Positions 6,634 through 19,666 of a stretch of 24,999 nucleotides of DNA are shown one piece after another. Under the pieces are notes generated by a model that ran no database searches, was not told the origin of the DNA, and saw nothing but the letters and a program-made list of their open reading frames with translations. The DNA is from Longimicrobiales bacterium (GTDB lineage Bacteria; Gemmatimonadota; Gemmatimonadetes; Longimicrobiales; RSA9), in contig JAWVYT010000001.1 in NCBI GenBank assembly GCA_033722595.1, positions 1 through 24,999 on the forward strand. The letters run 5' to 3'. The position numbers and the translations under genes were made by a program. Positions within the stretch are counted from its first letter, which is position 1. Each line of letters opens with the position of its first letter.

Positions 6634-6651
6634 TATTATGAAGTCATAAAT
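6634..6651. promoter_or_regulatory. Candidate ROK operator (site 1)
   Basis: Perfect palindrome TTATGA-AG-TCATAA (6636-6649) overlapping the spacer and -10 of the promoter. Confidence 0.65.
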
Positions 6652-6702: not shown

Positions 6703-7326
6703 TCACTGCCCCCGGTTCCGCCATTCGACCTGGAGCTGTTTCACCTCGGCGACGCCGGGCAGCTCGTGCTTCATCGGAGCCCGGACGTGCTCCACGACCT
6801 CTGCGCCGGGGCGGAGGGTGGCCGGGGCGGGCTGGACGTGGCTGGCGATGCTGGCGGCCTCGACCGTGCCCGGGTCGTTCTCGATAAGGCGGTTGATGCG
6901 GTCGAGGTGCCGGTCGATGCCGGGCACGTGGGGCACCGCGTAGATGGCTGCGATGCGTGCGCCGTCGGCGTTCTCCGAGGTCGCGATCTTGAGGTCGAGG
7001 TACATCTCCCGGAAGTCCTGGCCGAAATAGCGATGGGCGCTGAGGTTGGCCACCACGGCGGTGCCCCAGCCGGTGCCGTGGGTGCTGATGGAGCCGAGTG
7101 ACTCCCATTCGCCGCCGAAATCGAGGTTGGTCCGGAGGAAGACCTCGTGCTCGCCGGCGTCGAGATCGGCTCCATAAATGAAGAGGTCGAATCTGAGGTC
7201 CTCGGGCGCGAAGGTCGGTTCGGGACGGGTGTCCTGGGCGGTGCCCGGGGTCCCGCAGCCGAGGGCCGTTGCGGTGACCAGCAGGAGCGTTGCGAACGTC
7301 CGTGCGAGAGGTTCCGGCGGATGCAT
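6703..7326 (-). CDS. Hypothetical lipoprotein; stand-alone copy of the C-terminal domain of the 10929-12581 protein
   Basis: ATG 7326 preceded by GAGGAAATC; hydrophobic stretch plus lipobox ALGC; 207 aa; visible similarity to the neighbouring protein (RFDLFIYG vs RFDLWIYG). Confidence 0.75.
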   Translation of the reverse strand: MHPPEPLARTFATLLLVTATALGCGTPGTAQDTRPEPTFAPEDLRFDLFIYGADLDAGEHEVFLRTNLDFGGEWESLGSISTHGTGWGTAVVANLSAHRYFGQDFREMYLDLKIATSENADGARIAAIYAVPHVPGIDRHLDRINRLIENDPGTVEAASIASHVQPAPATLRPGAEVVEHVRAPMKHELPGVAEVKQLQVEWRNRGQ

Positions 7327-7366: not shown

Positions 7367-8890
7367 TCACGAGGCTTCCAGCACGACGGTGACGGTGGCG
7401 ACGGCCACGTCGGCGGGCAGAGTGATGGAGCCCTCCTCGGGGTCGTAATCGGACCACGGGCGTCCGTCGATCTCCACCGCCGTGATCCGGATCTCCGGGT
7501 CCTCCAGCAGGGAGGGGTGGAGCGTCGCTCCATTCGGCTCCACGATGCGGTAGTGGAGCGTCGCGGGCTCCTCCTCGACCCAGAGAGTGAGGTAGAGATA
7601 GTTGAGGAGCGCGTACTCCATGGAGTGATACGACGTCTTCGTGCGGACGGCTTTATCACCCCTGTGGAGGGACCCATCGAGGTATACGCTGAGATACACG
7701 GCGCCGTGCTCGGGGTCCATGAAGGCCCGGTTCCAGAACTCTGCGCCCGAGCGGAACACCTCGAGGTGCCGACGGTCCCCGGTCAGCCGATACTGGTACA
7801 GCTGCACCATGTTCCCGTACGCCTGGACCCACCAGGGCGTGGTGTTCCTGTGCACCTCGCCGGTAGCCAGCCGCAGCTGATGGGCCCACGCGCCGGTCTC
7901 CGGCTGGTACGCGTGCTCCAGCATGGAGGTCGCGAGCCGAAGGCCCTGGTCGCGGTAGGCGTCGTCACCGGTGAGGAGGTGGAGCCGCATGAGCAGCCAC
8001 CCGGTCTCCAGGTCGTGGCCGACGTTCGTCCGACGATCCTCGGGGCCATCGTACCGCCAGCTCCGATCGAACCGGCCCAGGACCCAGCCGGTCTCCGGGT
8101 CCCGTGTGCGCTCCATCACCACGCCCAGGATCCGCTCCATCCGCTGGAGGAGCACGGGGTCCCGCAGGGCGGGGTAGAGGTACGCCAGGTAGCCGGAGAC
8201 GTGGGCGATCTGGGGAGAGAAGTCCTTTCGCCATTCCCGGACCGACAGGTCCCGGTTCAGGCTGCGCACGTAGCCGCCGAGCTCCTCGTCCCAGGCGTGC
8301 CGCTCGAGGATCTCCATGGACCGATCGAGGTACCGGCGCACCACCGGATCCCGCGTCACGACCCAGTACATGGCCAGTCCGGTCACGGCGTACGCCTGGT
8401 TGAACAGGTCCTTGGTGTCGGCGACGATGCTCCCGTCCCGGTCCAGTTCGTCGTACCAGCCCCCGTACGCCTCGTCCCACCCGTGGTCCACCAGGAAGCC
8501 GAAGACGTCACCGGCGACATCCAGATGAGCGGCATCGCCGGTCAGGAGGTAGGCCGCGGAATAGCTGAAGAGGTGACGGGCCACCATGCCGGGGTACTTG
8601 TGGAGGTCGCGACTCGGCCGCCACTCCCGGTCCATCTCGGCGAAGAACGCGCCCGCCTCGGTGTCCTGGCCGTTGCGGGTCCAGGCGGGGAGCACGTCCT
8701 CGAGCCCCTGTGCCCGCCAGTAGTCGCCGTCCAGGAGGGCATCGGCCGTGACACCCGCGGTCGGCTCGTCGGTCACGGACTCGGCCGACGCCGAAGCGCC
8801 TGCGCCGGTCGGGCCACAGGCCGCGCAGGAGAATGCGAGGGCGGGGAGCAGCAGCCGGGCCCCCGATCGGACCGTGTTCGGGGCCCTCAT
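7367..8890 (-). CDS. AGE-family (N-acylglucosamine/cellobiose 2-epimerase, YihS-like fold) epimerase/isomerase with probable lipoprotein signal
   Basis: ARHLFSYS, GWDEAYGGWY, KDLFNQAY, VGHDLETGWLL, WWVQA, SYH. ATG 8890 overlaps the upstream stop (ATGA). Signal LLLPALAFSCAAC; 507 aa. Confidence 0.85.
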   Translation of the reverse strand: MRAPNTVRSGARLLLPALAFSCAACGPTGAGASASAESVTDEPTAGVTADALLDGDYWRAQGLEDVLPAWTRNGQDTEAGAFFAEMDREWRPSRDLHKYPGMVARHLFSYSAAYLLTGDAAHLDVAGDVFGFLVDHGWDEAYGGWYDELDRDGSIVADTKDLFNQAYAVTGLAMYWVVTRDPVVRRYLDRSMEILERHAWDEELGGYVRSLNRDLSVREWRKDFSPQIAHVSGYLAYLYPALRDPVLLQRMERILGVVMERTRDPETGWVLGRFDRSWRYDGPEDRRTNVGHDLETGWLLMRLHLLTGDDAYRDQGLRLATSMLEHAYQPETGAWAHQLRLATGEVHRNTTPWWVQAYGNMVQLYQYRLTGDRRHLEVFRSGAEFWNRAFMDPEHGAVYLSVYLDGSLHRGDKAVRTKTSYHSMEYALLNYLYLTLWVEEEPATLHYRIVEPNGATLHPSLLEDPEIRITAVEIDGRPWSDYDPEEGSITLPADVAVATVTVVLEAS

Positions 8891-10932
8891 GGCCGCCTCG
8901 GCGGTGGCAGCACGCCGGGGACGGCGATGATCGGGCTGTCGGCCAGTCGGGACATGACATCGATCCGGCGCTCCACGAGGCCGTTCCGGTTCACGTCCAG
9001 GACCGCCGCGATCCGGTAGCGTCCCGGCGGGATGCTCTCGAAGCGGAAGGCGCCGTCGGGTCCCGCGGCGGTCTCGAGCACGGGCTGCGCCAGGTACGGC
9101 TCGATCTTCCGATACGGCAGGTCGGCCATGTAGAGGCCGACCCGGATCGTGGCGTCGCCGGGCTCGCCCTCGATGTCCAGCGCTCCCCGGAGCGTGCGAC
9201 CCTCGAGGACCAGGCTGGCGGCGCGCAGGTCCACGGCGGTCACGTCGGTGTCCAGGAGGTCCGGCGGAAGATCGAAATGAATGGCCGCGGTCTCCTCGCG
9301 GGCCCGAACCGTCACCGGGTGGCCGTAGATCAGGGTCCGGAGGTCCTCGTAAGCGCTTTTGTCGCTCGTCGGGCCGGGGTTCCGAGGGTCGGCCTCCGCC
9401 ACGTAGATGTAGAACGTGCCCGGCGCCAGCCGGTCGATCCTCCAGCGGCCGTCCTCGTCGGCTACCGTCCGCTGTCCCCAGAATCCGCCGGTGTAGTTGG
9501 GCCACGCCGGGATGCGCCGCACACCCACGGCGACGACGTTCTCGCCGTGGTAGTCCACGGTGCCCGCGATGCTGCCGAGGAGGGTGTCGGGGTCGAGGGG
9601 TGGGGTGGCCGGGTGATCGGGGTCCACCAGCCGTAGCGCCTCATCGATGATCCGGACGCCGTAATGGGGCTGGAACCGGACGCCCTTGGCCTGGTAGGTG
9701 ACGGCCTCGAGGGCCAGGTGCTCGGGCACGATGTAGCCGATGTAGTCATCGGCGTTCGTGATGAGCATGTTCTTCTCGAGGGGCGAGCCGGCCTCGTAGC
9801 GGTACCCCAGGTCCACGCCCAGCTCGCCGGGGATGGTGGCGAGGACCGCGTCGTTCAGGACCAGGGCCTGGAGGAGGGTCTCGTGGCTGTCCCCGTCCCG
9901 GCGCGGGATCTCCGCCGTGGTGGAGCGGAACGCGAGGTCGACCTGCCGTCGTGTCTCCGTCCGGTCGAGGAGGGCCACGACCTCTTCGCCCAGCTTCTCC
10001 ATGAAGACGAGCTTCGGCGGGGCCTCCTCACCCCGGATCCGGGTGTCGGCTCGCCGGGGCTGCTGGTCACCCGCCGCGCCGCCCGAAAACATGATGAACG
10101 GGTCGGTGGCGATGTCGTTCTTCCGCTGGTAGCGCTCGTACAGCAGGTCCAGCCGCTTCCTGGCCTCCACGTACTCCCGGACGAACCCGGGCCAGTCCGG
10201 CCCCGTCTGCCCGACATCGCTCCACTCGGTGAAGATGGTGGGATGGGACCCGTAGTTGAACATGGCGCCACGGAAGTTGCCGTCGGCGTCGTCGACGCGC
10301 AGTACGTAGAGGAGCGGGTTGGCCAGGCCCGACAGCTCGGCTCGGTTCAGGTTCAGATCCTCCTGCGCCCGGGTCTTCCCGACACCGATCCGGGCGTCGA
10401 ACCGGGTCGCCATGGCCTCCTCGGCGGCCCGGGTCGCCCGGTCCGCCAGGAAGCTCCGGACCTCCTGGCCGTGCGTCCGGGGGTACGAGTGGTTGTGGGT
10501 TGCTGCCACGATCATGTGACGGACGTCGAGCCCCGTGGCTTCGGCTACCCGGCGCTTGATCCACTCCCCGTCGCCCCGACGGATCCCGATGACGTCGAAC
10601 TCCAGGAGCAGGGTTTCGACACCGTCGACCTCGATGAGGAGAGCATGGACCAGCGCACTGTCGTAGTACCCCGTCGTCGGCTCCGGACGCCCGTACGAGA
10701 GGCGGACCGGGAACTCCGGCGTGATATCCGCCTCGCCGAACCCCACGCGGACGGCGCCCGACGCCCGGACCTCGTACACGGGCGCGGCGGTCCGGGCGTC
10801 CCGGCCAAGCGGAGGGATTCCGGGACCCGGCTCCGCCCCGGAGGCTCCCGGCAGCGCCAGGAACGCGGTCAGGCACACCACGACGGACGACCGGCACTCC
10901 CCGGCGCCGGCGAGCCCTCGCCTCCGGGTCAC
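8887..10932 (-). CDS. Exported neutral/alkaline ceramidase-like amidase domain plus C-terminal beta-sandwich (carboxypeptidase-regulatory-like) domains
   Basis: GFGEADITP, AATHNHSYP, NYGSHPT, GAAGDQQP, NADDYIGYIVP; C-terminal WRIDRLAPGTFYIYV and FRFESIPPGRYRIAAVLDVNRNG. GTG 10932 overlaps the upstream TGA; signal peptide-like N-terminus; 681 aa. Confidence 0.78.
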   Translation of the reverse strand: MTRRRGLAGAGECRSSVVVCLTAFLALPGASGAEPGPGIPPLGRDARTAAPVYEVRASGAVRVGFGEADITPEFPVRLSYGRPEPTTGYYDSALVHALLIEVDGVETLLLEFDVIGIRRGDGEWIKRRVAEATGLDVRHMIVAATHNHSYPRTHGQEVRSFLADRATRAAEEAMATRFDARIGVGKTRAQEDLNLNRAELSGLANPLLYVLRVDDADGNFRGAMFNYGSHPTIFTEWSDVGQTGPDWPGFVREYVEARKRLDLLYERYQRKNDIATDPFIMFSGGAAGDQQPRRADTRIRGEEAPPKLVFMEKLGEEVVALLDRTETRRQVDLAFRSTTAEIPRRDGDSHETLLQALVLNDAVLATIPGELGVDLGYRYEAGSPLEKNMLITNADDYIGYIVPEHLALEAVTYQAKGVRFQPHYGVRIIDEALRLVDPDHPATPPLDPDTLLGSIAGTVDYHGENVVAVGVRRIPAWPNYTGGFWGQRTVADEDGRWRIDRLAPGTFYIYVAEADPRNPGPTSDKSAYEDLRTLIYGHPVTVRAREETAAIHFDLPPDLLDTDVTAVDLRAASLVLEGRTLRGALDIEGEPGDATIRVGLYMADLPYRKIEPYLAQPVLETAAGPDGAFRFESIPPGRYRIAAVLDVNRNGLVERRIDVMSRLADSPIIAVPGVLPPPRRP

Positions 10933-12581
10933 CGGTCCGGGCCTCCCGTGAGTCCCAGCGCCTCGCGCCAGGCCGCCCGGGCCGCGTCGGGGCCCACCGG
11001 GCGCCGGGCCTGGACCGTGATCGTGACCGGTGCCGCGGCGTCGATGGCGAGGGGGCGGGGCCGGACCCAGGCGGCGAGGCTGTTGATGTCGGCCCATCGG
11101 GGGTGAACCTCGATGAACCGGGTGACCTCCGCCTCGGTCAGGAAGTTCCGGGTCTCCCGATACGGCATCGCGTAGACGGCCGAGACGGTGGAGCCGTCCC
11201 TGCCGTTCGGCGTCTCGAATCGGACCTGGAGCCGGCCGTCCACCAGGAATCGGTCCCGCTCCAGGGCGTGGAAGAGGACAGCGTGCGACCGGTCGGCGTA
11301 CGAGTACATGTGCGCCGTGTCCGCGTCCTCGACGTAACCCTCCCGGTCCTGCTGCGGGTTGATGGAGCCCAGGAACTCCCAATCCCCGTCCGCCGTTCGG
11401 AGGGAGACCCGGTGCTCCGAGTGATCGAAGTCGTGGCCGTAGATCCAGAGGTCGAACCGCTCTCGCGGCTCGATCGCGCCGCCGGCCTCGAGGAGTCGGA
11501 GGTAGCCGTACGTGAAACGGTCCCGGGAGGTCCCGATGACGGAGCCCGCGGGACCGATGGCGCCCTGGCTGTTGGGGACGAACGGGTCGAACGAGACGTC
11601 GTAGAGCCGGTCCTCGGAGACACCGGGGTCCCGGGAGATCAGCATGTGATTGGTGGCCGAGTAGTTCGGCCAGTACCAGCCGAGGCCGTCGGGCTCGCCG
11701 GCCATCATGGCGTCGACGTTGGTGTCGATCTCCCACCGGCTCGGCGTGTGGCCCAGCCGGATCGTGTGGATCTGCCCCAGCTGATAGGCGCCGACGCCGT
11801 AACGGTCCGCCACGGTCCGGATGTTCCGGACCACGTCGGTTATGTAGTCGTTTATCCCCTCGATCCCGAAGCCCCGGGCGAGCCAGCCTCGGTAGATGTC
11901 GGAGTAGATGAAGTCCGGCGTGGCCCCGTGCTCCGTCGCCCGGCGCATGAACTCGTCGATCAGCGAGTATTCACCGGCCATCGCCTCCGACGCGTTGTGC
12001 GGGTGGTGGAGGAAGACCCCGACCTCCACGGTGGGCATCTCCTCCTTTAGGGCCCGGGACATCATGGCGAATGCCTCCGGGGCGTGACGCCGGAACTGGT
12101 CGAAGTCGAGGAAGTAGTCCCGGTGTCCGTCCACGAGATCCCGGCCGAACCCGCCGAGGGGCGCCTCATCGAACAGGCTGATCCGCCCGCCGTCCGGGTA
12201 GTACTCGTTGAAGATCCGGGCGATGGCGCGGAACCGGGCCAGTGCGGGGGCCCGCTTCTCCGGATCCTCGACGAACTCGCGGGCTGTTGCCTCCCGGCCC
12301 GGTCCGATCTCCAGCCACACCTCCTCGATGCCCAGCTCGGTGGTCCATTCGAAGAAGTTGCGGAGCCCTAACGTGTCCCGGTTGCCGGACTGATAGGGAA
12401 CGATGTCGTGCCGCTTCGCGAAGGTGAGCATGGTCCGGAAGAGCTCCGGGTCACCCTCCATGAGGTTCTGCCCGCCGGTCCACATGTGAACCTCCAGCTC
12501 CTGCCCGTCGGCCAAGGACGCGCCGAGACCCGCGAAGGAAAGGAGGAGCAGGGCTTCCACGCACCGTCGTCTGAATGCCAT
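10929..12581 (-). CDS. Exported hypothetical protein (~550 aa); possible TIM-barrel glycoside-hydrolase-like domain plus C-terminal domain
   Basis: Signal peptide MAFRRRCVEALLLLSFAGLGASLA; protein-like composition; in line with the operon. Start 12581 (alternative 12611). No family recognised with confidence. Confidence 0.75.
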   Translation of the reverse strand: MAFRRRCVEALLLLSFAGLGASLADGQELEVHMWTGGQNLMEGDPELFRTMLTFAKRHDIVPYQSGNRDTLGLRNFFEWTTELGIEEVWLEIGPGREATAREFVEDPEKRAPALARFRAIARIFNEYYPDGGRISLFDEAPLGGFGRDLVDGHRDYFLDFDQFRRHAPEAFAMMSRALKEEMPTVEVGVFLHHPHNASEAMAGEYSLIDEFMRRATEHGATPDFIYSDIYRGWLARGFGIEGINDYITDVVRNIRTVADRYGVGAYQLGQIHTIRLGHTPSRWEIDTNVDAMMAGEPDGLGWYWPNYSATNHMLISRDPGVSEDRLYDVSFDPFVPNSQGAIGPAGSVIGTSRDRFTYGYLRLLEAGGAIEPRERFDLWIYGHDFDHSEHRVSLRTADGDWEFLGSINPQQDREGYVEDADTAHMYSYADRSHAVLFHALERDRFLVDGRLQVRFETPNGRDGSTVSAVYAMPYRETRNFLTEAEVTRFIEVHPRWADINSLAAWVRPRPLAIDAAAPVTITVQARRPVGPDAARAAWREALGLTGGPDR

Positions 12582-14339: not shown

Positions 14340-17300
14340 TTAGAAGGTGATCTCGACCGTGGCCGTGAGCTGACGGAGGTTCGGGTAGCCAAAGGCGTCG
14401 TACCGGTTCAGCACCGTGCCCACGTCCGGGTCGTATCCGCTGTAGCCCGTGAGGGTGAACAGGTTCCGGCCCGTGATCCCCAACGTCAGGTTCTGTGGCG
14501 CCATGGAGCCCGGGAGCCACCCCAGCTGGCCCCGGTTGAACGTGTAGGCCAGCTGGATCGCCTGGAGCTTGAGGAACGTCGCGTCCTCGACAAACGGGTC
14601 GGTGAAGATGTTGTTGTTATAGAGCCCGCGCTGGTAGTAGCGGCGGCTCTTCTTCGTTTCCTCCGACTTGCCCCGCTGGTCCAGGTCGCCGTGCTGGCTG
14701 AGACGGTACATGCGCTGCCGCGTGTAGTTGTACACATCTCCACCGATCTGGCCGCGCAAGTGGGCGTGTACGGACAGCCCCTTCCACGTGACGTTCGAGA
14801 GGAAGCCGTAGCTGAAATCGGGCTTCATGCTCCCGATCTTGAACGTCAGCTGCTCCCCCGTCGCCGGGTCGAACATGGCCACCGGCCAGCCCCAGTCGTA
14901 GCGGACGCCGTCGATCGTGGTCCGCGTCTCCCAGTTCACCCTGCCGGTCCCGGAATCCTCGAGCCCGTCCCGCCACGTGTTCCCGGCTCCGACCCAGACG
15001 ACGTAGCCCTCGTCGTTCACGTCGAACTCATCCTCGAAGCCGGCCAGCCCGATATCGGCCAGCTGGTCGAGGCTCGTCAGGAACTGGCTCCCGTAGATGT
15101 CGTAGAGAGAGTTGCCCTCGTCGTAGATGCGGAGGCCGTCGCGGAGCGGCGCGATGGGCCATTCCGTGATCGTGCTGGTGGTTTGGTCCCCCACGAACGT
15201 CGCCGTCCACCGCAGGTTGTCGCTCTGGATCAGCGACGCCTCGAGGCTCATCTCGAGGGCCGTCCCCTCGATGGTCCCGATGTTGTCCCACTGGTACTGG
15301 TAGCCCGTCACCGCACGCTGCGGACGACGGAGGATCATGTCTTCGGTCCGCTGCGTCGCGTACGTCAGCTGCAGCAGGTAGCGATCGTACAGCGCCACGT
15401 CGAGCCCGACCTCCTGCTCCCGGGCGAACTCGGGCTTGAGCGCCCGGTTGCCCAGGGTCCCGCGGGTGAACGTCACCGTCTGCCCGTCGGCCGAGACATC
15501 CACGTCCCAGGTCTCGTACTGGAAGGCGAAGTCCGGGCGGTTCCCGGCCGTGCCCAGCGAGTACCGGGGCTTGAACTCCGTGATCACGTCGGCGAACGGC
15601 CACCAGGGCTCCTCGCTTACCCGGTACGCTAGCGCGGTCCGGAAGTACGTGTGCCACCGCTCTTCGGGACCGAACAGCGAGCTGCCGTCCTGTCGCACGA
15701 GGAAGCTGCCGATGTACTTGTCCGAATAGTCCAGTGCCAGGTCCGCGAAGTACCCGTTCGCACGGATCGTCTCGTTCGTCGAGCGGATCGTGCGGTCCCG
15801 GGCCAGGTTTACGTCGCTCGTGCCCAGCACGGCGAAGTCCTCACCCCGCGTCTGGACGTCCACCAGGTCCCGGCTCTCGAAGCTCCCCGCGAACGTGAGT
15901 CGCGAGTTCAGCAGTCCGAAGTTCTCCGTGAGGGTGGCCCTCAGGCTCCCGTTCTGCGTGTCCATCGTCCGCTCCCGCAGGTCCAGGAGGCCGGGCGACG
16001 GGAACGTCTCCGGGTTGCCCGAGAAGGGGTTGATCGGCGTGCCCGCCGGCAGGTGCCACTGGTTGTTCCGGTCGAGCCGGTCGTACGAGAACTGACCGCT
16101 GATCCGCAGCCACTGAGCGGGTGAGTAGTTCAGCGCGATGTTGCCCAGCGTCCGCGAGCGCTTCTCCCAGTTGTCCCGGGTCTGGGCGAGGAAGAGAGGG
16201 TTCTCCTGCCAGTACGACGAGTCGGGGAACTGGACATAGAGCCCCGTTTCGGGATCGATCTTCCCGATGTCGAACTCGTTCCGGTACCGCATGAGCTGGA
16301 AGAACGCTCCCTGTCCGGTGGCCCCGGACTCACCCTCGTCGATGGTCTCCCGGAACGACCGGTTGTGGTACCCGCTGAACGACAGCGAGAGGTTGTCCAT
16401 GATCCGGTGATCCAGGTTGAAGCGGAAGTTGTAGCGCTCGAAACCCTCGTGCCCCGGGATGGAGCCGGCCTCGTCGTAGAGGTTGAACGACGTCAGGAAG
16501 TTCGTCTTCTCCGAGTTCCGGCTCACGCCAAACGACTGCATGAGGAACCGGCCTGGCTTGTAGAACGTCCCGATGTGGTCGTAGAGCGGGTCGATATAGC
16601 TCTGGTCCGCGATCTGTCCCGGGTTGTTGGCGAAGCCCTCGCAGTTCGGATAGAAGCGCCGGCACCCAAGGTCGCCGTCCCGGTCGAGCATGTCGCCGGT
16701 ACGGACCAGGCGCCCGTGAGAATCCGTGTAGGGCTCGCCCTCGTTCACGACCCGCCAGTGCGCCTCCAAGGACGGGATCCGGCGCGGCAGGGCGCTCGCG
16801 CCCGCCTCCGAGCGGTACGTGAACCGTGTCTGGTCCAGGGCCACGCCCGAGCCCCGAGCCGTCCGGATCTGGATCACGCCCGCCGCCGCCCGGGACCCGT
16901 AGAGCGACGCCGCGGCCGCTCCCTTGATCACCTCGATGGACTCGATGTCCAGAGCCTCGAGATCGATGGTCCCGGCGCCCAGGATCACGCCGTCTACCAC
17001 GTACAGCGGCTCGTTCCCCGTGAAGACCGTGGTCGGGGTCCGGAGCTGAATGCTGACCTCCTCACCGGGCTGCCCGCTGGGTCGCGTGATGTTCACACCG
17101 GCGACCTTCCCCTGCAGCGACTGCAGCGCCGCCCCGGTGGCCGGAACCGTCGCAACGTTCTCGGCGCTGACACGCCCCACCGTGAAGGGGAGCTTCTTCC
17201 CCTGGACGGGATCCACCACGCCGGTCACGACGATCTCGTCGAGGGACAGCGCCGTCTGCCGGAGCACGAAGTCCACCACGTGCGTGCCCGACTCCAGCGT

Positions 17301-17582
17301 GACGTCCTCCTCTACCGTGGAATACCCGATGGACTGGGCCACCAGCGTTACGGTCTGGTCCCGAACCAGAGAAGCCGGAACCGCAATGCGGTACCGGCCC
17401 TGTTGATTCGTGAAGGTCCCGAGCCCCTGGTCCGCCAGCCCGTCGACGTAGACCTGTACGCCCGGCATCGGGTCCCCGGCCTCGTTGGCCACCGTGCCCA
17501 GGAGCGTCGCTTCCTGCGCCAGCGCCGGGCCGGATCCCAGGAGAAGGAGTGCGAAGATGAGTCCAATTGGCCTGGTCTTCAT
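14340..17582 (-). CDS. susC: SusC/RagA-like TonB-dependent transporter
   Basis: Signal peptide, N-terminal beta-sandwich, DEIVVTG TonB box, PLYVVDGV and IEVIKGAAAASLYGSRAAAGVIQIRT plug motifs, terminal Phe (VEITF). ATG 17582 with AGAGG RBS; 1080 aa. Confidence 0.93.
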   Translation of the reverse strand: MKTRPIGLIFALLLLGSGPALAQEATLLGTVANEAGDPMPGVQVYVDGLADQGLGTFTNQQGRYRIAVPASLVRDQTVTLVAQSIGYSTVEEDVTLESGTHVVDFVLRQTALSLDEIVVTGVVDPVQGKKLPFTVGRVSAENVATVPATGAALQSLQGKVAGVNITRPSGQPGEEVSIQLRTPTTVFTGNEPLYVVDGVILGAGTIDLEALDIESIEVIKGAAAASLYGSRAAAGVIQIRTARGSGVALDQTRFTYRSEAGASALPRRIPSLEAHWRVVNEGEPYTDSHGRLVRTGDMLDRDGDLGCRRFYPNCEGFANNPGQIADQSYIDPLYDHIGTFYKPGRFLMQSFGVSRNSEKTNFLTSFNLYDEAGSIPGHEGFERYNFRFNLDHRIMDNLSLSFSGYHNRSFRETIDEGESGATGQGAFFQLMRYRNEFDIGKIDPETGLYVQFPDSSYWQENPLFLAQTRDNWEKRSRTLGNIALNYSPAQWLRISGQFSYDRLDRNNQWHLPAGTPINPFSGNPETFPSPGLLDLRERTMDTQNGSLRATLTENFGLLNSRLTFAGSFESRDLVDVQTRGEDFAVLGTSDVNLARDRTIRSTNETIRANGYFADLALDYSDKYIGSFLVRQDGSSLFGPEERWHTYFRTALAYRVSEEPWWPFADVITEFKPRYSLGTAGNRPDFAFQYETWDVDVSADGQTVTFTRGTLGNRALKPEFAREQEVGLDVALYDRYLLQLTYATQRTEDMILRRPQRAVTGYQYQWDNIGTIEGTALEMSLEASLIQSDNLRWTATFVGDQTTSTITEWPIAPLRDGLRIYDEGNSLYDIYGSQFLTSLDQLADIGLAGFEDEFDVNDEGYVVWVGAGNTWRDGLEDSGTGRVNWETRTTIDGVRYDWGWPVAMFDPATGEQLTFKIGSMKPDFSYGFLSNVTWKGLSVHAHLRGQIGGDVYNYTRQRMYRLSQHGDLDQRGKSEETKKSRRYYQRGLYNNNIFTDPFVEDATFLKLQAIQLAYTFNRGQLGWLPGSMAPQNLTLGITGRNLFTLTGYSGYDPDVGTVLNRYDAFGYPNLRQLTATVEITF

Positions 17583-17803
17583 GCTACCTCTTGGATTGGG
17601 TTTGACGTGAGTCGGGCCCGTCCACTGCCAAGATGCGGGCCGAATCCGGGGTTCTGTGCTGCCCTGCGGCCCTCGCCGCCCGGCGGGACACCGGGCAGCA
17701 ATCGGCATGGATCGCGCGGCCTCTGTAGGCCTGTAGGATTCGCTGCCAATGGAACGATTCAGGGGTCGGGCCGGAGCCGTTGGGGTCGGGTTCGTTGGAC
17801 GGC

Positions 17804-17838: not shown

Positions 17839-17935
17839 TATTGTGCAAACAGAAAGAAAAGCGCGCGGTGTGTGCCCCGGAGGGTGCCGGACGTCGGACG
17901 GGCCGGTTCAGGCGTATGTTATTACGAAAACAGAT
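17839..17935. promoter_or_regulatory. Pair of candidate ROK operators (sites 2 and 3)
   Basis: TATTGTGCAAACAGAA (17839-17854) and TATTACGAAAACAGAT (17920-17935), 81 bp apart. Confidence 0.55.
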
Positions 17936-19569: not shown

Positions 19570-19666
19570 TGTTCCGGAAACAGATTATCAGTAGGCCGGC
19601 CTTCTGCCCACCCGCCCCGGGCGCGACGGCGGGCGAACTTGACCCATTGATATTACGATAGCAGAA
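19570..19666. promoter_or_regulatory. Pair of candidate ROK operators (sites 4 and 5) in the divergent promoter region
   Basis: TGTTCCGGAAACAGAT (19570-19585) and TATTACGATAGCAGAA (19651-19666), 81 bp apart. Confidence 0.6.

Follow-up and report, generated by a model that had tools for sequence, protein, structure and literature searches.

Introduction

The AGE superfamily includes the GlcNAc 2-epimerases, the cellobiose, mannobiose and mannose 2-epimerases, mannose isomerase and the sulfoquinovose (SQ) isomerase. To our knowledge, all characterized members that can be placed in a tree of the superfamily fall into one "short" branch, and all of them are cytoplasmic. We know of no precedent for a sugar 2-epimerase or isomerase outside the cytoplasm, and a search of the literature, covering open-access papers, found none on an exported enzyme of the AGE family. 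In the cellobiose 2-epimerase (CE) RmCE, His259 and Glu262 are the general acid/base and its partner, and Trp385 stacks on the non-reducing sugar of the substrate. The glutamate of the WWPQAE motif (Glu308 in RaCE) is said to be required in CEs, and a third histidine has been reported as required as well (PMC5726027). For the E. coli SQ isomerase YihS, a sulfonate pocket made up of Arg55, Gln362 and Gln379 has been described (PMC8006165).

Here, we analyze an AGE-superfamily protein from a Longimicrobiales bacterium (the AGE protein), together with its relatives and their gene neighborhoods. It is encoded in a stretch of 24,999 nucleotides of DNA, which we call the window.

Results

Gene, start codon and export

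The AGE protein has 507 residues and is the product of ORF 7367-8890 on the reverse strand. Its parts are the following:

8816..8890, reverse strand: signal peptide, residues 1-25 (from the translation, the ATGA overlap and the lipobox alignment with the closest homologues)
8744..8815, reverse strand: low-complexity Gly/Ala/Ser/Thr linker between anchor and barrel, residues 26-49 (low pLDDT; not conserved in alignment A1)
7571..8743, reverse strand: (alpha/alpha)6 barrel of the AGE superfamily, residues 50-440 (PF07221, AF2, VIA, Foldseek)
7367..7570, reverse strand: C-terminal beta domain, residues 441-507, and stop codon (AF2 strands)

The start of the gene is fixed by its ATG at 8890, which shares bases with the TGA stop codon of the preceding gene (ATGA); a GAGG lies 7 nt upstream. 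The protein begins with MRAPNTVRSGARLLLPALAFSCAAC, a charged n-region followed by a hydrophobic core. The strict lipobox pattern [LVI][ASTVI][GAS]C is missed at both Cys22 (AFSC) and Cys25 (CAAC). Since the AACGP of the AGE protein aligns with the canonical AGCGP lipoboxes of its closest homologues (P0005-P0007, P0011), its predicted export is well supported and its lipidation is probable, with Cys25 as the likely lipidated residue. Signal-like amino termini, as scored by a crude hydrophobicity and lipobox rule and not by SignalP, are present in about 79 of the 83 homologues, and export is predicted to be a trait of the whole family.

A first-pass annotation of the window had described the protein as an exported epimerase with a changed active site. 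The ORF, its start and all motifs quoted there are present in the sequence at the coordinates that we checked, and the export claim is borne out by the amino-terminal signal, the coupled start and the signal-like ends of the homologues. The circumstance that had been named against it, a later start codon leading to a cytoplasmic form, is possible in principle (GTG at codon 39), but was rejected, given that the ATG start is coupled through ATGA and preceded by GAGG and that signal peptides are conserved. Initiation at the next methionine (residue 86) would delete the invariant Trp58, Gln61 and Trp70.

Fold and carboxyterminal domain

Residues 82-424 match Pfam family PF07221 (E 2e-30, 106.7 bits against a gathering cut-off of 23.4). 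The AF2 model has a mean pLDDT of 92.4 and contains twelve helices; values exceed 95 over the barrel stretch and are about 50-60 across residues 1-50. In comparisons with solved structures, Foldseek gives E values of about 1e-24 for the barrel, and VIA gives a Z score of 48.6 against RmCE (3wkf/9l8i; 388 residues, rmsd 2.6). All solved members of the AGE superfamily, which are epimerases or isomerases, are matched with VIA Z scores of 39-49, and the GH76, GH88 and GH47 hydrolases, which share the fold, with Z scores of 25-31. The top structural matches by Foldseek and VIA include no polysaccharide lyase.

An extension of about 70 residues at the carboxyterminal end had already been noticed in the first pass. 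As the modeled barrel reaches to about residue 440 and is followed by beta strands (443-450, 467-474, 488-490 and 497-506), this extension is a folded domain of 67 residues. The entire "long" branch of the superfamily has this domain. Its Leu445 and Pro459 are conserved across the branch, and structure matches in the Atlas, to long AGE proteins from other phyla, extend over residues 38-507.

Position in the superfamily

The AGE protein belongs to the "long" branch (superclade II), which accounts for 72 of the 115 representatives sampled. E. coli YihS sits in the other main branch, and the split between the two has 99% local support (FastTree). For the "long" branch, we found neither a solved structure nor a characterized member. 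Signal-like amino termini occur in 52 of 62 assessable superclade II representatives, versus 7 of 26 in superclade I. Several "long"-branch members carry T9SS tails, and Ig/fn3, beta-helix or esterase domains are found as well. Some also match PF06662, the carboxyterminal domain of glucuronyl C5-epimerase, but weakly, and this family is in the same Pfam clan.

At 59-71% identity, the closest homologues are encoded on short Logan contigs. Among cultured organisms, the family is carried by Cyclobacterium spp., Pontibacter ummariensis, Flavihumibacter profundi, Fodinibius sediminis, Catalinimonas and Rhodohalobacter. The genome that encodes the AGE protein also encodes a canonical cytoplasmic AGE paralogue.

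Active site

Column statistics and profile alignments to RmCE (3wkf) and E. coli YihS locate the active-site segments as follows:

8576..8578, reverse strand: Arg105, equivalent to RmCE Arg66 and YihS Arg55, invariant (column statistics, profile alignments)
8201..8218, reverse strand: SPQIAH on inner helix 3, in place of CE NTHLH (profile alignments to 3wkf and E. coli YihS)
8006..8020, reverse strand: GHDLE, with His292 and Glu295 equivalent to RmCE His259 and Glu262, both invariant (columns, profiles)
7817..7834, reverse strand: WWVQAY, with Trp353 and Trp354 kept and the invariant Tyr358 in place of the glutamate of CE WWPQAE (columns, profiles)
7616..7633, reverse strand: SYHSME, with His422 equivalent to RmCE His390 and the invariant Glu425 in place of Arg393 (columns, profiles)

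Eight residues (R105, H292, E295, W298, W353, W354, H422 and E425) are invariant among 83 sequences with 41-69% identity. By profile alignment, the invariant set of the AGE protein matches RmCE R66, H259, E262, W322 and H390. The catalytic histidines of GHDLE and SYH, which the first pass had listed as kept, do not vary among these 83 sequences. The alteration of the active site is larger than it had first seemed: it comprises Ala229, Tyr358 and Glu425, and it is conserved family-wide. The replacement of NTHLH by SPQIAH was also read correctly, but the histidine of SPQIAH (His230) is not the third histidine. According to the RmCE and YihS profiles, it is Ala229 that aligns with this residue (RmCE His200), with Ser225 corresponding to Asn196 and Gln227 to His198. 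Position 229 is Ala in 98% of the family, but His in 100% of the CE/YihS-like representatives; position 230 is Pro in most of the family. Just upstream of SYHSME, Thr417 stands in place of RmCE Trp385, next to the clade-specific Arg416.

Glu or Asp occupies position 425 in 55 of the 56 representatives that have no acid at position 358, and a carboxylate next to His422 is retained in 114 of 115. Together with the invariance of Arg105, His292, Glu295 and His422, this argues for retained catalysis, which we predict. Further invariant aromatic residues are specific to the clade (W58, W90, Y237, W269, W335 and W386) and would fit an oligosaccharide-binding surface. In a sister clade (P0126, P0128, P0134), Tyr358, His422 and Glu425 are retained but His292 and Glu295 have been lost, so the conserved core may serve other chemistry.

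Operon and gene neighborhood

The AGE gene is the fifth of six genes in an operon with the order susC, susD, GH-like, ceramidase-like, AGE and small lipoprotein. Its companions are:

14340-17708, reverse strand: susC-like TonB-dependent receptor at the operon head (Pfam CarbopepD_reg_2 and Plug)
12740 to about 14320, reverse strand: lipoprotein gene in susD position (position, TAGC lipobox, SusD-like matches on the genes of relatives)
10929..12581, reverse strand: exported 550-aa GH-like protein with X domain, a recurrent partner of the AGE clade
8887..10932, reverse strand: exported protein, weakly ceramidase-like, translationally coupled to AGE (ATGA overlap)
6703..7326, reverse strand: downstream small lipoprotein ("X domain") of the same operon (40-nt gap with an AGGA-type ribosome-binding site)

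Promoter-like sites were found only before susC (17832-17804) and before the ROK gene that follows the operon (6663-6635). The ORF in susD position has no Pfam match of its own, no Pfam family passes for the ceramidase-like protein, and NCBIfam gave nothing specific for the neighbor genes. The ceramidase-like homologue in L062 does match Ceramidase_alk (E 3e-14), and in 10 loci, the AGE gene has such a homologue nearby. In 19 of 80 related loci, the GH-like gene is directly upstream of AGE. The X domain, for which the predicted model of the small lipoprotein is weakly PLAT-like, is present in 23 of the 80 and is fused to the AGE carboxyterminus in P0037, P0064 and P0051. L036 combines GH-like, X, AGE and X in one ORF (8087-11923, 1278 aa), P0121 and P0122 show the same arrangement, and GH-like and AGE parts are also fused in L048.

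Partners vary by lineage. They are GH-like in halophiles and GHL10/DUF4434 in Bacteroidales, and in Cyclobacterium the AGE gene has sulfatases and a PQQ dehydrogenase as neighbors. The idea of a single universal partner family was dropped, as the GH-like family (A2) and the GHL10 proteins encoded before AGE in Bacteroidales (A3) show no detectable homology (hhalign probability 15%).

Discussion

Our best explanation, which we favor tentatively and with slightly less than even confidence, is that the AGE protein is an exported, probably lipid-anchored reducing-end epimerase or isomerase of the distinct "long" branch, and not an SQ isomerase of the YihS type. As the predicted product of the fifth gene in a susC-susD operon, exported and probably anchored, it would act in the periplasm or at the cell surface. 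It would retain the chemistry of the superfamily, removing the C2 proton of an open-chain reducing-end sugar and returning it via an enediol, and the outcome would be C2 epimerization or aldose-ketose isomerization. Judging from sequence, support for His422 would now come from a carboxylate on helix 6 (Glu425) instead of the one on helix 5 (the glutamate of WWPQAE). Rather than on a free sugar in the cytoplasm, the enzyme would act on the reducing end of oligosaccharides that are set free by the GH-like protein, whether fused to it or encoded next to it.

Several observations sit uneasily with this explanation. Two residues reported to be required in CEs, the third histidine and the glutamate of WWPQAE, are gone. 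There is a sister clade without His292 and Glu295, and the neighbors of the gene differ among lineages. Moreover, epimerization or isomerization outside the cytoplasm has no obvious benefit.

A cleavage reaction is the alternative that survives best, and we regard it as unlikely. The AGE fold could serve as a hydrolase or lyase through Tyr358, His422, Glu425 and Arg416, or C2 deprotonation could bring about the beta-elimination of a 3-O substituent from the reducing end. The latter would amount to enzymatic "peeling" or an etherase-type reaction, and in either case the protein would work together with its GH-like partner. The branch is secreted, and its T9SS tails and its Ig/fn3, beta-helix and esterase domains are typical of secreted carbohydrate-active enzymes. 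The residues that the sister clade keeps are Tyr358, His422 and Glu425, the fold is common to GH76, GH88 and GH47, a Tyr/His pair with a nearby Arg resembles what is generally known of (alpha/alpha)n polysaccharide lyases, and several loci contain sulfatases. However, the nearest structures are epimerases and isomerases, with Z scores well above the 31 that hydrolases reach at most, lyases are absent from the top structural matches, and both catalytic histidines, the Arg and the Glu of the epimerases are invariant in the clade.

The first-pass annotation had proposed a periplasmic step in sulfosugar metabolism. Its export part holds, and its sulfosugar part has a local basis. The six-gene operon ends 130 nt from the start of a same-strand row of ROK, ALDH, transaldolase and SSF genes, so that the AGE protein could be a periplasmic isomerase or epimerase of sulfoquinovose or another sulfosugar, followed by import through SSF, cleavage of the product by the transaldolase and oxidation by the ALDH. 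A sulfatase gene lies upstream, the window contains no YihS-type isomerase, and the clade-specific Arg416 places a positive charge near His422. An operator-like motif precedes ROK, susC and the sulfatase region, with 7 matches versus 0.18 expected for a pattern that was derived from the same sites and then counted. Yet no homologue of the transaldolase or the ALDH of the window occurs in the 80 related loci (flanks of up to 10 kb), and a search of 40 relatives at E<=1e-40, among them the two that carry this AGE family, did not reveal the transaldolase. The link to sulfosugar breakdown is thus local to this genome and no property of the family. The AGE protein itself also argues against the sulfosugar reading. 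The comparison with YihS that the first pass had called for does confirm the fold (Z 42.8), but two of the three pocket residues are missing: the universal Arg is kept, Gln362 corresponds to Leu400, and Gln379 corresponds by spacing to Lys418, a position at which CEs also have Lys. The third histidine is missing, too. With profile E values of 2e-35 for cellobiose/mannose 2-epimerases versus 3e-17 for YihS, and with the higher Z score for CE, the AGE protein is much nearer to the cellobiose and mannose 2-epimerases than to YihS. The cytoplasmic AGE paralogue in the same genome is a further point against the sulfosugar reading. The case for sulfoquinovose is weak, and a sulfosugar role in general appears very unlikely.

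Two other possibilities are more improbable still. Epimerization within a polymer, as by the heparosan and alginate C5-epimerases, could make a glycan cleavable by the partner enzyme; the extracellular location, the invariant tyrosines and the PF06662 matches on some branch members would agree with this, but these matches are weak and within the same Pfam clan, the conserved residues are the reducing-end epimerase set, and no uronate-specific neighbors were seen, which makes it a far-fetched option. Least probable of all is a role as a SusE/F-like lipoprotein that binds glycans at the surface and uses the AGE fold without catalysis. The place in a susC/susD operon, the lipoprotein signal and the many invariant tryptophans could speak for it, but Arg105, His292, Glu295 and His422 do not vary in the 83 sequences and the carboxylate beside His422 is almost universal.

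The AGE protein represents a separate exported branch of the superfamily, with an extra domain of its own and with half of the active site rebuilt. Members of the branch are integrated into SusC/D loci in Bacteroidota, Rhodothermota, Balneolota and Gemmatimonadota, and there are even fusions with unassigned GH-like proteins. The labels "AGE family epimerase/isomerase" and "mannobiose 2-epimerase" that annotation pipelines assign to the "long" branch are probably misleading. It is conceivable, if rather doubtful, that the "long" half of the superfamily (carboxyterminal beta domain, Glu425, signal peptide or T9SS tail) is a large unrecognized class of extracytoplasmic glycan-active enzymes. The clade of the AGE protein would then be a reducing-end enzyme physically joined to a PLAT-like module and a new hydrolase of the GH-like type, and either the first extracytoplasmic sugar 2-epimerase or isomerase or a "peeling" or eliminating enzyme, with an amino-, sulfo- or lipid-linked glycan as substrate. 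Once known, the reaction would extend models of glycan harvesting at the outer membrane by a new step and help to assign the partner families.

Among the characterized enzymes, N-acyl-D-glucosamine 2-epimerase (Anabaena 2gz6, pig 1fp3) shares the fold and the histidine pair with the AGE protein and, judged from the AGE-like short group, also lacks the third histidine. It is cytoplasmic, and its group has Asp229, Lys295 and Glu358 where the AGE protein has Ala, Glu and Tyr; the equivalog NF052547 scores 81.8 bits on the AGE protein, versus a cut-off of 600. YihS (E. coli b3880, 2rgk; Salmonella 7ag4) has the same fold (hhalign probability 98.4%) and likewise combines the Arg, the His-x-x-Glu and the carboxyterminal His, but it is cytoplasmic, lacks the carboxyterminal domain, falls on the opposite side of the main split in the tree and differs at His176 (Ala229) and Gln362 (Leu400); the AGE family is not associated with sulfoglycolysis genes. 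The mannose/glucose 2-epimerase Runsl_4512 of Runella slithyformis (8h1k-8h1n) is the best single-sequence match in the PDB (E 3e-22; Foldseek E 7e-25; 22% identity) and has the same catalytic histidine pair, Arg and Glu. In contrast to the AGE protein, it has the third histidine (DVHMHL) and the glutamate (FWQQAE), and its chain of 421-423 residues is without the carboxyterminal domain. CE (RmCE 3wkf/9l8i; RaCE 3vw5) has the same (alpha/alpha)6 barrel, with an RmCE profile E of 9e-33, about 22% identity to RmCE, and 93.8 bits for the equivalog NF041848 versus a cut-off of 800. The AGE protein is exported and has the extra beta domain of 67 residues, whereas CE is cytoplasmic. Relative to RmCE, it has exchanged His200 (RaCE His184) for Ala229, Asn196 for Ser, His198 for Gln, the glutamate of WWPQAE for Tyr358, Trp385 for Thr417 and Arg393 for Glu425, and it has kept counterparts of all five of Arg66, His259, Glu262, Trp322 and His390.

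Gene, export signal and fold

The AGE gene occupies 8890 to 7367 on the minus strand of the window (69% G+C), and its open reading frame translates to a protein of 507 residues, P0001. Its ATG and the TGA that ends the upstream gene share bases (ccATGAgg), and a GAGG stands 7 nt before the ATG. The longer, 712-residue reading frame listed here is just an open in-frame stretch upstream that overlaps the upstream gene. Residues 82-424 match PF07221 (GlcNAc_2-epim) in Pfam (E 2e-30, 106.7 bits), while every NCBIfam equivalog scores far under its cut-off (cellobiose 2-epimerase 93.8 against 800, AGE 81.8 against 600, mannose isomerase 34 against 600). The AlphaFold2 model, built on an alignment of 83 homologues, has a pLDDT of 92.4 and three parts.

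Parts of the P0001 model
residues 1-50, disordered N-terminus
residues 55-438, twelve-helix (alpha/alpha)6 barrel
strands between 443 and 506, small beta domain

The N-terminus has a charged n-region, a hydrophobic core and two cysteines (AFSC and CAAC), neither of which fits the strict lipobox rule. The closest homologues (59-71% identity) have ...AGCGP, ...LGACAG or ...SGCAAG at the place where AACGP of P0001 aligns. By a simple hydrophobicity-plus-lipobox rule, 30 N-termini in the family alignment are lipoprotein-like and 49 signal-peptidase-I-like; the remaining four members are truncated gene calls or carry no signal-like segment. Signal-like N-termini across the alignment thus predict that export is a conserved property of the family.

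A remodelled active site

Residues were mapped by profile alignments to the cellobiose 2-epimerase (CE) of Rhodothermus marinus (RmCE, 3wkf, the enzyme's own numbering) and to Escherichia coli YihS, the sulfoquinovose isomerase, and invariance was judged over 83 sequences.

Active-site residues of P0001 and their RmCE counterparts
Arg105, RmCE Arg66, invariant
His292, RmCE His259, invariant
Glu295, RmCE Glu262, invariant
Trp298, invariant
Trp353 and Trp354, the latter RmCE Trp322, invariant
Tyr421, invariant
His422, RmCE His390, invariant
Ser225, RmCE Asn196, changed
Gln227, RmCE His198, changed
Ala229, RmCE His200 (the "third His"), changed
Ser232, a Glu in RmCE that is 100% conserved among CE/YihS-like sequences, changed
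Tyr358, the Glu of RmCE WWPQAE, changed
Thr417, RmCE Trp385, changed
Glu425, RmCE Arg393, changed

In addition, Phe163 stands at the position of RmCE Tyr124 (an RmCE number counted by hand). The first-pass annotation had described an exported AGE protein with an altered active site; all the motifs it quoted are found in P0001, their coordinates now computed, and the description stands with one correction. The His of SPQIAH (His230), possibly taken there as the third His, is Pro in most family members, and the third-His position is Ala229. The third His is described as conserved in CEs and YihS and as required in CEs (PMC5726027).

Among 115 representatives, Glu or Asp is present at 425 in 55 of the 56 that have no acid at 358, so that a single representative has an acid at neither position, a pattern that mostly tracks one deep tree split and counts as few independent events. 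We read it as a carboxylate beside His422 that would have moved from helix 5 to helix 6. Residues invariant in the P0001 clade and rare elsewhere are W58, Q61, W90, A229, S232, G233, Y237, W269, N289, W335, Y358, N360, W386, R416, T419 and S420. With its extra aromatics the clade may have a larger surface for binding sugar, and Arg416 is a candidate for contact with an anionic group.

A secreted branch of the AGE superfamily

When 1.84 billion cluster representatives were searched exhaustively with HMMER, 2,328 matched at E<=1e-3, and 100 of these reached E<=1e-30. In a FastTree phylogeny of barrel columns (115 full-length representatives, E. coli YihS and a second AGE gene of the source genome), the superfamily splits in two with 99% local support. 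Superclade I (43 rows) is without the C-terminal extension and shows either a CE/YihS-like signature (His 229, Glu 295, Glu 358, Arg 425) or an AGE-like one (Asp, Lys and Glu at 229, 295 and 358). Superclade II (72 rows) has the C-terminal domain and Glu425, and holds P0001 within a 15-row "Tyr358" clade (96% support). Judged by their motifs, the solved and characterised AGE enzymes belong to superclade I, YihS alone having been placed on the tree.

The N-terminus is signal-like in 52 of 62 assessable superclade II representatives versus 7 of 26 in superclade I, where 17 further representatives have no room for a signal peptide. Among the superclade II members sampled are proteins with T9SS sorting domains, with fn3/Ig domains, with a beta-helix and with an alpha/beta-hydrolase domain. 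Such additions are found on many long AGE-fold proteins (P0147, P0153, P0161, P0174, P0228 and P0192 have T9SS C-terminal sorting, fn3/Ig or right-handed beta-helix domains), and a large part of the superfamily therefore appears to consist of secreted multi-domain proteins. A structure search of the ESM Atlas also matched barrel and C-terminal domain together in long AGE proteins from Actinomycetota and Cyanobacteriota.

The sister group (P0126, P0128 and P0134) has lost His292 and Glu295 (to Ala and Thr), has kept Tyr358, His422 and Glu425, and has gained two His on helix 3. These too are exported AGE-fold proteins, P0134 being fused to an esterase-like alpha/beta-hydrolase domain. The finding of a clade of exported AGE-fold proteins whose active site is remodelled, inside a large secreted branch of the superfamily, is real and conserved and, as far as we found, undescribed.

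Operon and comparative neighbourhoods

Genes in the predicted operon of the AGE gene
14340-17708, minus, susC-like receptor
12740 to about 14320, minus, lipoprotein gene in the susD position (assigned by position; no Pfam match)
10929-12581, minus, unassigned 550-residue exported GH-like protein
8887-10932, minus, 681-residue exported protein, weakly ceramidase-like
6703-7326, minus, 207-residue lipoprotein (X domain), directly after the AGE gene

Promoter-like sites were found only before susC and before the ROK regulator, the next gene after the small lipoprotein. Past ROK follow genes for ALDH, a transaldolase/FSA-family protein, an SSF transporter and an amidohydrolase; upstream of susC there is a sulfatase gene. 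The model of the small lipoprotein (pLDDT 84.8) is a beta sandwich followed by helices. Both aligners used give as top matches PLAT/LH2 domains without exception, from lipoxygenases, lipases and clostridial alpha-toxin, but at weak similarity (VIA Z 5.4-6.8, Foldseek E ~0.01). The module may therefore bind membranes or lipids, and the substrate may possibly be a glycolipid.

A scan of species-representative genomes gave 80 loci carrying the family, in Salinibacter/Salinivenus, Balneolaceae, Cyclobacterium, Catalinimonas, Pontibacter, Flavihumibacter, Prolixibacteraceae, Rikenellaceae, other Bacteroidales, Longimicrobiales, Gemmatimonadaceae and one Aminicenantes.

Window proteins found by tblastn at the 80 loci
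small lipoprotein domain, 23
susC, 21
GH-like protein, 19
sulfatase, 7
ceramidase-like protein, 6 (10 by blastp clustering)
SSF transporter, 5
ROK, 1
transaldolase, ALDH and amidohydrolase, 0

Three gene orders recur. Halophiles and Gemmatimonadota have GH-like+X, sometimes the ceramidase-like gene, AGE and X. Bacteroidales have susC, susD, a MORN lipoprotein, GHL10, a GATase1-like gene and AGE, then DUF4434/GH42M or GH31, a T9SS protein and a second AGE, followed by GFO/IDH/MocA plus DegT aminotransferase, Ceramidase_alk-like, SSF and aldo-keto reductase genes. Cyclobacterium has susC, susD, two to three sulfatases, AGE, a PQQ dehydrogenase-cytochrome c and a 3-keto-disaccharide-hydrolase/DUF6807 protein, a set that hints at an oxidative glycoside-cleavage route. 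At six Cyclobacterium loci (L018, L019, L024, L027, L029, L031) the AGE gene is flanked by repeated Uma2-family endonuclease genes.

In a Longimicrobiales locus of the same genus (L036, 8087-11923, plus strand), one uninterrupted 1278-residue reading frame joins GH-like, X, AGE and X, parts that are three or four separate genes in the window, where the ceramidase-like gene interrupts them. L048, P0121 and P0122 show this fusion too, and AGE+X fusions of 658-673 residues are common. The strongest argument that the AGE and GH-like proteins would share one target molecule comes from these fusions. The family is patchy in the order, being found in 2 of 40 relatives, both with the fused form, and the neighbouring operon's transaldolase was found in none of the 40. 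With both so rare, islands gained by horizontal transfer seem to lie side by side in this part of the window.

Proposed activity and alternatives

Because Arg, His, Glu and His are invariant and a carboxylate is maintained beside His422, we favour a model in which P0001 retains enediol chemistry, acting at C2 of a reducing-end sugar in its open-chain form. The reaction would be an epimerisation or aldose-ketose isomerisation, in the periplasm or at the cell surface, on an oligosaccharide released by the GH-like partner. Amino-sugar-type neighbours (GHL10, DegT, the ceramidase-like amidase), sulfatases at AGE loci and the weakly PLAT-like fold of the X lipoprotein may serve as leads to the substrate, and as leads only.

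A protein that cleaves or eliminates is a less likely alternative to retained enediol chemistry. It would suit the absence of both the third His and the WWPQAE Glu, the sister clade without His292, and the secreted multi-domain relatives.

The periplasmic sulfosugar isomerisation or epimerisation proposed in the first-pass annotation is more doubtful still. Its genomic setting stands: the AGE operon adjoins the ROK-ALDH-transaldolase-SSF row, a sulfatase gene is nearby, and an operator-like motif, TTNYGNNNNCAKAW, lies before ROK (6636-6649), susC and the sulfatase region (17841-17854, 17922-17935, 19572-19585, 19653-19666), with one extra match inside susC at 14746. The motif has seven matches against 0.18 expected, a statistic biased by a pattern derived from the same sites; the site before ROK is a perfect palindrome overlapping the spacer and -10 box of a TTGACA-17-CATAAT promoter. 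However, homologues of the window's transaldolase and ALDH were found at none of the 80 loci, and the transaldolase was not found in the 40 relatives, even in the two that carry the AGE family. The YihS sulfonate pocket (Arg55-Gln362-Gln379; PMC8006165) is not reproduced, Gln362 aligning to Leu400, and YihS falls in superclade I. Moreover, the source genome has a second AGE gene (L002, 378-1532, minus strand, on the 1.7-kb contig C609), 31% identical to P0001, with the canonical CE signature (His, His, Glu, Glu, Arg) and neither signal peptide nor C-terminal domain. Action as a polymer-level epimerase or as a pure binding protein is less likely than cleavage or elimination.

Comparison with known enzymes

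The C-terminal domain of P0001 is covered by no solved relative (372-423 residues modelled in each). The apramycin transaldolase AprG (PDB 9lfy, 9c95 and related entries), a binder of GlcNAc and GalNAc, has a barrel in common with P0001 (Z ~25) and shows that C-C bond chemistry on open-chain N-acetylhexosamines is also within reach of this fold. GH76, GH88 and GH47 hydrolases reach VIA Z <=31 against the P0001 model, AGEs proper 39-42, and YihS ~42-43. All lie below the closest solved structures, the CEs (R. marinus, S. thermophila and others) and the Runella glucose/mannose 2-epimerase Runsl_4512, which superpose at VIA Z 47-49 (rmsd 2.3-2.6 over 374-391 residues, Foldseek E ~1e-24) with 22% identity.
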